DNA of 64,000 bases from assembly GCA_964016885.1 (NCBI GenBank), contig OZ024746.1, forward strand, positions 61,814,001-61,878,000, in the 5' to 3' direction. Position numbers and translations under genes: made by a program. The notes under the pieces are model-generated. The model searched no databases. It had not been told where the DNA came from and saw only the letters and a program-made list of their open reading frames with translations. Of this stretch, positions 52,872 to 53,481 are shown piece after piece (the stretch's first letter is position 1; every line of letters starts with the position of its first letter). The stretch is from Eledone cirrhosa (lineage: Eukaryota).

Positions 52872-53477
52872 AGAATTAGTATATCTACCAACATATGCGT
52901 ACATATGAACACTAATGCTAGCAAATACATAAGTTATGTCATAGTACCTAGGTGGTTCAATGCAGGAGGATGCAGAACAATTATATGAAAGACGTAAAAT
53001 AAGAACATTTTGAAAAATTAAAAATTAACTTACTAAAATTTTCACTCCAACTAATTAGTTTCTGTAATGGGATAAAGATGGTTATGCAATGTAACCATCG
53101 AGAATTCATTACGTCATCAGGGAGTCTATTCTCAGCTAAGTCTCCAGGCAATGCGCGGACACTAGGGACTCATATAAAAATAATAATTCGGTGGATGGAA
53201 CAGCTAGCGGGGACTAAATTCCATGCACTGAAAAAGTTCACTGTCTCTGGTCAAATGGCAGATTCTAAAGAATCAATCACGTGACACTGAGGCTAGTCGG
53301 AAGGAGTGGAGTGGTAAGATGACAAAAGCCTACTACCACACCAATGAATTAGTAGTGGATTTGGCACGTTTGCTCAACAAACAAATAATTTGGAGATAAA
53401 TATAGAGAATTAGTATATCTACCAACATATGCGTACATATGTACACTAATGCTAGCAAATACATAAGTTATGTCATA

Positions 53478-53481
<4 letters not shown>
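52872..53481 (-). mobile_element. HHR-bearing element family C: 534-bp unit with 76-bp terminal direct repeat, in TA tracts
   Basis: AGAATTAGTATATCTACC..ATAGTAC at 52872-52947 and 53406-53481 (1 mismatch). Confidence 0.85.
53044..53125 (-). ncRNA. Intact-looking type I hammerhead ribozyme
   Basis: ACTCC-CTGATGA-C GTAATG..GATGGTTA..TAACCATC..CATTAC A-GAAAC-TAATTA-GTT-GGAGT. Confidence 0.88.

Follow-up and report, generated by a model that had tools for sequence, protein, structure and literature searches.

The window, that is, the whole 64-kb stretch of DNA analysed here, contains a 610-nt insert flanked on both sides by (TA)n tracts and derived from a 534-nt repeat unit (Table 1). The two ends of the insert form a 76-nt direct repeat with a period of 534 and one mismatch, in agreement with the period and redundancy described in an earlier note on this DNA, and no second copy of the unit was found elsewhere within the 64-kb window. 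The insert is a lone arm ending at a site designated B, whose synthesis stopped at position +102 of the second pass, and 5′ truncation after 1.14 units is the whole source of its 76-nt redundancy. The hairpin predicted next to site B keeps its 14 pairs in 85-91 of 91 copies, one pair alternating between GC and AU (45 vs 42 copies). The data indicate that the window copy is an ordinary member of the 534-nt family.

Table 1. Features of the window related to the 534-nt insertion. Unit positions (+) are counted in RNA sense from the predicted cut, 53049/53048.
Feature	Positions	Strand	Remarks
Interrupted copy of a young Neptune-type Penelope-like element	29999..31673	-	RT and GIY-YIG
End fragment of 603-nt tandem family	52517..52731	+	Faces same TA tract as window copy
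(TA)n tract, 3′ (site B) side	52729..52871	.	
Single-arm insertion of 534-nt unit	52872..53481	-	Minus strand = RNA sense; from +102 through cut site to +177, 1.14 units
3′ copy of unit positions +102 to +177	52872..52947	-	Outer end = fixed site B
Predicted hairpin directly 5′ of site B	52877..52929	-	
Site A, AUAUA	52982..52986	-	+63 to +67; run through in window copy
Hammerhead with predicted stem I extension	53029..53140	-	
Type I hammerhead-like motif, Penelope type	53044..53125	-	C·A mismatch at stem II base; predicted cut 53049/53048
Internal copy of site B, UCUAUAU	53400..53406	-	Terminal use of site B at 52872
5′ copy of unit positions +102 to +177	53406..53481	-	Outer end = 5′ truncation point, varying among copies
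(TA)n tract, 5′ side	53482..53526	.	
Diverged second fragment of 603-nt family	53508-53674	-	

A 78-bp inverted repeat around the window copy was considered as a MITE and rejected, as it corresponds to two ends of the 603-nt family. This family (loci L249-L262) ends at TA tracts and carries a B-like end motif resembling that of the 534-nt family, and no hammerhead was found in its unit by motif patterns. At 41947-47030 the window has tandem repeats of 72-nt period that extend over 5 kb and contain long open frames; it also has a stretch that we take, from its resemblance, to be an RTE/CRE-type LINE fragment (8412-10279, minus strand), and presumably a mariner transposase fragment (61151-61828, plus strand).

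All the hammerhead elements described in the earlier note were located on the minus strand: a perfect 5-bp stem I (ACUCC/GGAGU, 53125-53121 paired with 53048-53044), CUGAUGA at 53120-53114, stem II (GUAAUG/CAUUAC) continued by a distal helix (GAUGGUUA/UAACCAUC), GAAA, a 12-nt palindrome at 53049-53060, and a GUU site with U as the cleavage nucleotide at the predicted cut. As the note had also stated, the motif lies in the middle of the insert and outside the terminal repeat, separated by 433 nt from the 5′ end of the insert and by 177 nt from its 3′ end. The fold thus includes the CUGANGA and GAAA core, an NUH site, and three stems; the description of this hammerhead as intact held for the fold but not for the core, which is non-canonical. 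No stem II pair stacks directly on the core, and instead an unpaired C after A9 (following CUGAUGA) faces an unpaired A before G12 (preceding GAAA), forming a conserved C·A mismatch. Searches against Rfam gave no hammerhead match at E ≤ 10 for the 534-nt element alone, and no hammerhead among the matches listed for the 64-kb window (best 150 of 198). The C/G...C/A arrangement was present in 112 of 129 distinct copies, and the A before G12 in 128 of them; the variant is therefore family-wide and not the result of decay of the window copy.

None of 200 shuffled sequences was as stable as the minus-strand fold (z = -2.97), and the plus strand scored z = -3.26, so that the strand cannot be picked by folding energy alone. 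In 28 copies chosen for their diversity, 92% of the cells of the proposed structure were paired, with 47 two-sided changes, a number reached in 0 of 500 shuffles. Kinship of the copies inflates this covariation control, yet no fewer than four spellings of stem II are found repeatedly in genome-wide pattern matches. The two-sided changes were located in stem II and its distal helix, and none in stems I or III; the predicted stem I extension adds 10 further pairs, with 91% of cells paired and no two-sided changes. Compensatory changes across subfamilies 74-100% alike imply selection on the RNA fold, and the element likely carries a self-cutting ribozyme. By inspection, a mismatch at the same place in stem II is also found in the window's three remaining hammerhead-like motifs; two hammerhead-like motifs, at 32306 (plus strand) and 33865 (minus strand), each combining a CCATGG palindrome with a mismatched stem II base, sit in separate repeats nested inside the Penelope-like copy of the window.

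The extent of the family was determined by searches covering the 3.0-Gb genome assembly. A DNA search yielded 110 matches from 40 scored of 2,727 candidates, the full-length ones being 94-98% alike, and a gapped hammerhead pattern gave 8,434 exact genome matches (control, 0). Subfamilies were 74-100% identical to one natural array. Arrays reach 6-7 units of 534 nt, with a hammerhead motif in each unit, and the longest ATG frame in a natural tandem is 57 aa. The unit lacks the RT plus GIY-YIG frame of an autonomous element. As in non-LTR retrozymes, a type I hammerhead recurs in every unit of a tandem whose period is a few hundred bp, no protein is encoded, and the 5′ ends vary in place of an LTR. 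In two long arrays (L228:4728-5070 and L229:4145-4337) the 3′-most piece differs in haplotype from the upstream units, and that of L228 runs to +229 and is followed by ca. 100 nt resembling the end of another family. Within single arrays, some units have one copy and others two of a 4-nt repeat, GTAA, at unit positions +13 to +24; this switching occurs in all subfamilies and at many loci, and 5′ truncations cluster there too.

Comparison of genomic copies revealed that 3′ ends fall either at site A (ca. +66) or at site B (ca. +178), both abutting (TA)n, whereas 5′ ends vary. Among 221 distinct arm 3′ ends, 107 were at A, 91 at B, and 23 elsewhere, five of the latter being over-extensions into TA. 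Genome-wide, the 16-mer preceding site A was followed by TA repeats, i.e. an element end, in 1,963 cases and by run-on sequence in 2,413. The two sites are ca. 112 nt apart, so that a tail of this length is present on one end only, and the flank was TA-like in 70/71 cases on each of the A and B sides. A set of 176 insertions comprised 91 AB, 1 AA, 1 BB, 31 single A, 29 single B, and 23 other cases; both outer ends were thus at A or B in 93 two-armed insertions, 91 of which paired A with B, with the arms head to head. In the sample of 90 A-anchored loci, inverted partners ended at B in 54, at A in 2, and elsewhere in 8, with 23 single and 3 same-orientation loci; 54 of the 56 partners with a fixed-site end finished at B. 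These samples consist of first matches on one contig or of best matches and are enriched for A ends, and single-arm counts are upper bounds, since diverged insertions are sometimes split. Partial tandems, 5′ truncation, an inverted 5′ arm, and a one-end tail together make up the pattern of Penelope-like elements.

These results bear on the remaining proposals of the earlier note. Copying of more than one unit of a circular or tandem RNA by RT was supported: of 89 arms, 70 extend across the predicted cut and 23 are longer than one unit (of the 90 loci, L134 was dropped from the 5′-end analysis and L084 was set by hand). On the contrary, terminal redundancy is not a set feature, given that 65 single-orientation pieces span 39 to 1,389 nt, nor is the copy permuted in the sense of free breakpoints, with 198 of the 221 arm 3′ ends at just two sites. 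In the comparison of breakpoints among genomic copies that the note had suggested, the 5′ ends varied and the 3′ ends were set; LTR-like ends fixed on both sides, which the note had named as the refuting case, do not apply. Its reading of the single copy overlooked the main architecture, namely two head-to-head arms with A/B ends, as well as the link to Penelope-like elements.

The ends at site B frequently carry additional CT dinucleotides. Tracts of (CT)≥6 were observed at B ends in 24/44 copies at least 90% like the reference, in 8/22 of a middle group, and in 1/25 of the most diverged group; where the internal site B was read, CTCTA was its usual spelling, and the diverged group ends in CTTTA. 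In 21 of the 24 insertions with (CT)≥6 there was no CT tract on the far side, indicating that most of these tracts are not duplicated target; target-site duplication is masked by (TA)n, and this result refers to its CT-tract form alone. The (CT)n likely arose from reiterative copying at initiation, although slippage after insertion may be responsible instead.

Regarding the template, crossings of the predicted cut had the exact spacer length in 206 of 214 cases, the other 8 being one base longer. As crossings are common and exact, the usual template must be uncut or re-ligated. It may be a circle formed after ribozyme cutting of multimers, although we put the odds of this at somewhat less than even. 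Such a circle is consistent with these exact junctions, with private variants common to units within one array, with the stability of the natural unit folded as a circle (z ca. -6 vs 40 shuffles), and with an enrichment of 5′ ends just 3′ of the cut, where 18 of 89 lie in +1 to +18 (hazard 3.7-fold, scan-corrected P = 0.0006). This excess fits cleaved RNA, but RT that stalls at the extension of stem I, also a place of recurrent 4-nt slippage, would explain it equally well; the slippage itself had no bias between first and later passes. Divergence within arrays was 2.4% vs 3.0% to the best other insertion, being lower in 26, equal in 5, and higher in 32 rows, two of which represent the same array. 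A shared-allele test (394/1,181) was set aside on account of contamination by older copies nearby. Against a single circle, the first-made piece differs in haplotype from the upstream units in two long arrays, a difference that was not significant across 49 insertions (P = 0.12). A version of the circle model in which RT starts anywhere on a ribozyme-made circle and leaves randomly permuted copies with variable terminal redundancy is very unlikely: the two fixed 3′ ends refute a free start point, though not the circle itself.

The origin of the inverted arm and the mode of spread were also considered. Self-priming by fold-back of one strand, in place of a second target-primed run, has been proposed for rotifer Penelope elements (PMC3846280, accessible part), and some head-to-head junctions do sit on palindromes; in 19 of 111 such junctions both 5′ ends lie within 15 nt of each other, vs 12 after shuffling (P = 0.02). 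However, neither arm contains the other in 24 of 84 AB insertions (at least one of them an alignment artefact), against the 30 ± 4 expected for independent arms, arm lengths are uncorrelated (Spearman -0.05), and at one locus (L159) an A arm of the 534-nt family is fused directly with a B arm from a different family. Fold-back, most unlikely as the general explanation, may account for a minority of insertions. The A/B rule and the independent arm lengths favour double target priming over self-priming. Finally, the family might be a satellite that expands at the DNA level, through duplication or unequal crossover, and whose hammerhead is a relic of an old Penelope-like end. Tandem arrays, one of them with variants common to subsets of its units, and the local amplification by unequal crossover suggested in the accessible part of 10.64898/2026.07.22.740005, fit this possibility, which is nevertheless extremely unlikely, since thousands of short insertions are dispersed with fixed TA-abutting ends and the compensatory changes in the fold point to selection on an RNA. 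As a mode of spread the satellite explanation is largely refuted, although single arrays may still be affected by such events.

The enzyme that copies the family was sought among the Penelope-like elements of the genome. The Neptune-type element interrupted in the window, of which further pieces lie at window positions 29619 (minus strand) and 34249 (plus strand), belongs to a young family (genomic loci L211-L227) with a 4.2-kb unit and many uninterrupted 775-aa RT-GIY-YIG frames, overlapped by an upstream frame of ca. 450 aa. These frames have the CX4CXXC linker that the accessible part of Craig et al. (10.1101/2021.04.23.441226) gives for Neptune and Nematis. The element also has a small hammerhead with a U·U mismatch, forms tandem and inverted arrays, and ends at +127 (20 copies) or ca. 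+180 (28 copies) from its own hammerhead, both ends being TA-like; arrays with both ends seen were A/B in 10 of 10 cases. The window copy itself, heavily nested, has B-type ends on both sides and counts against the rule. No DNA homology to the 534-nt unit was found in 47 loci of the 4.2-kb family, apart from one nested 534-nt copy, and the contexts of sites A and B resemble each other weakly between the two. No autonomous parent was detected in 30 GIY-YIG loci (of 10,597 candidates), where hits were TA artefacts or a nested copy, or adjoining 180 family loci by tblastn. The Neptune-type family is thus a candidate enzyme supplier for the 534-nt family; as no homologous autonomous parent was found, we infer this driver from the shared end rules.

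Other families share parts of this organization. A third hammerhead family (L250, L160, L152, L178, L237, L252, and L272) has a near-canonical hammerhead and two TA-abutting ends ca. 57 nt apart, with A/B pairing in L250 and L160. Three joins between families were single cases among 51 free 5′ sides: in L159:1430-1760 the A arm of the 534-nt family and a B arm of the third family are joined without TA; in L085:1-1518 a GIY-YIG end plus 3′ region of another Neptune-type element is joined in sense orientation to an A arm, also without TA; and in the L027 chimera a B arm is joined, likewise without TA, to the distal end of another family, which breaks the A/B rule.

Altogether, the 534-nt family is probably a non-LTR retrozyme, a non-autonomous Penelope-like element that borrows a Penelope-type enzyme and is copied through double priming at two internal sites. 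Within a (TA)n tract, each strand would be nicked by a GIY-YIG endonuclease; AUAUA at site A would pair with the 3′ end at one nick, and UCUAUAU at site B with that at the other. Two independent RT runs on circular or multimeric RNA, often extending beyond one unit, would then give two cDNAs that join head to head, or a lone cDNA that would be attached straight to the target, the case represented by the window copy. The (CT)n at site B is likely added when the enzyme copies the first CU dinucleotides repeatedly, and the modelled ribozyme likely cuts multimeric transcripts as a dimer. A more ambitious reading, which we regard as rather unlikely in its entirety, is that Penelope-type enzymes of this clade perform a coordinated two-subunit integration, one strand always priming at the proximal site and the other at the distal site via TA pairing, even on two RNAs (L159), with ribozyme-made circles among the templates and a telomerase-like reiteration that writes (CT)n and lengthens (TA)n; such elements would then be builders of the genome's microsatellites.

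So far, animal retrozymes have been connected with Penelope-like elements through their co-occurrence and through repeat homology. Here, a retrozyme family bears the Penelope insertion signature in numbers, and beside it exists an autonomous element that is young, intact, and subject to the same end rule; the two constitute a candidate enzyme-RNA pair for testing the origin of tandem, inverted, and tailed structures, named as an open task in the accessible part of Craig et al. (10.1101/2021.04.23.441226).

Among known systems, plant LTR retrozymes carry a type III hammerhead in fixed LTRs with a 4-bp TSD, unlike the 534-nt family, whose motif is of type I and lies outside the repeat and whose 5′ ends vary. 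In LINE-1 twin priming, two target-primed cDNAs are joined head to head. The 534-nt family is alike in this respect, but both of its priming sites are fixed and internal, and its arms may overlap or exceed one unit.

The remaining comparisons draw on the accessible parts of the works cited. Non-LTR retrozymes of animals (PMC7229834; 10.64898/2026.07.22.740005) are similar in their non-coding tandem units, type I hammerhead, low GC, thousands of copies, and co-occurrence with Penelope-like elements; the 534-nt family differs in its two fixed starts, inverted arms, and TA target, and no homologous pseudo-LTR parent was found for it. Its unit is longer than the 150-450 bp of PMC7229834 and falls inside the 51-972 bp of 10.64898/2026.07.22.740005. 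In the latter preprint, Li, Clavereau and Pollet describe retrozymes as non-autonomous Penelope-like derivatives and leave the mechanism open; the classes sampled in its accessible part include no mollusc, 1 of 9 predicted Xenopus retrozyme dimers was cleaved in vitro, and 24 of 57 Xenopus retrozyme families matched Repbase. The minimal Penelope-like hammerheads (PMC4209133) share a long stem II, a short stem I, an extra nucleotide after A9 with a G-C pair next, and a palindromic stem III region suiting dimers, whereas the 534-nt motif adds a second extra nucleotide before G12, producing the C·A mismatch; among the printed cases seen, the U·U mismatch of axolotl HHR_Amex2 (PMC7229834) comes nearest. 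The minimal hammerheads and the circle hypothesis, i.e. the idea of the earlier note, were put in print by Cervera and De la Pena in 2014, and the accessible text of PMC13282606 does not mention ribozymes.

Neptune/Nematis-type elements (10.1101/2021.04.23.441226; PMC2377424; PMC3846280) are alike in their partial tandems, 5′ truncation, inverted 5′ arm, one-end tail, microsatellite bias, and hammerhead upstream of the ends; a tail usually on one end and a (TA)n bias are described in 10.1101/2021.04.23.441226. The 534-nt family differs in lacking a coding frame, in a tail of ca. 112 nt vs 30-40, and in that both of its starts resemble the target. For the Poseidon element PAc of the green anole, studied in vitro, Frangieh et al. 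(PMC11167929) report two internal RT starts 3′ of the hammerhead that explain the tail, with both target strands cut and extended, as inferred here, and ribozyme cleavage unneeded. In the accessible part of that work no strand difference in start is reported and the start is not homologous to the cut DNA, whereas the 534-nt family has 91 AB vs 2 same-site insertions and TA-like sites at which pairing would take place. The literature searched, consisting of the main texts of openly accessible papers, gave no statement of a strict A/B rule or of twin priming for Penelope-like elements. The class of element is already known and the 534-nt family may already be catalogued; new within the searched literature are the near-absolute A/B pairing with independent arms, the target-like start sites, the 112-nt tail, the (CT)n addition, and the conserved core mismatch.
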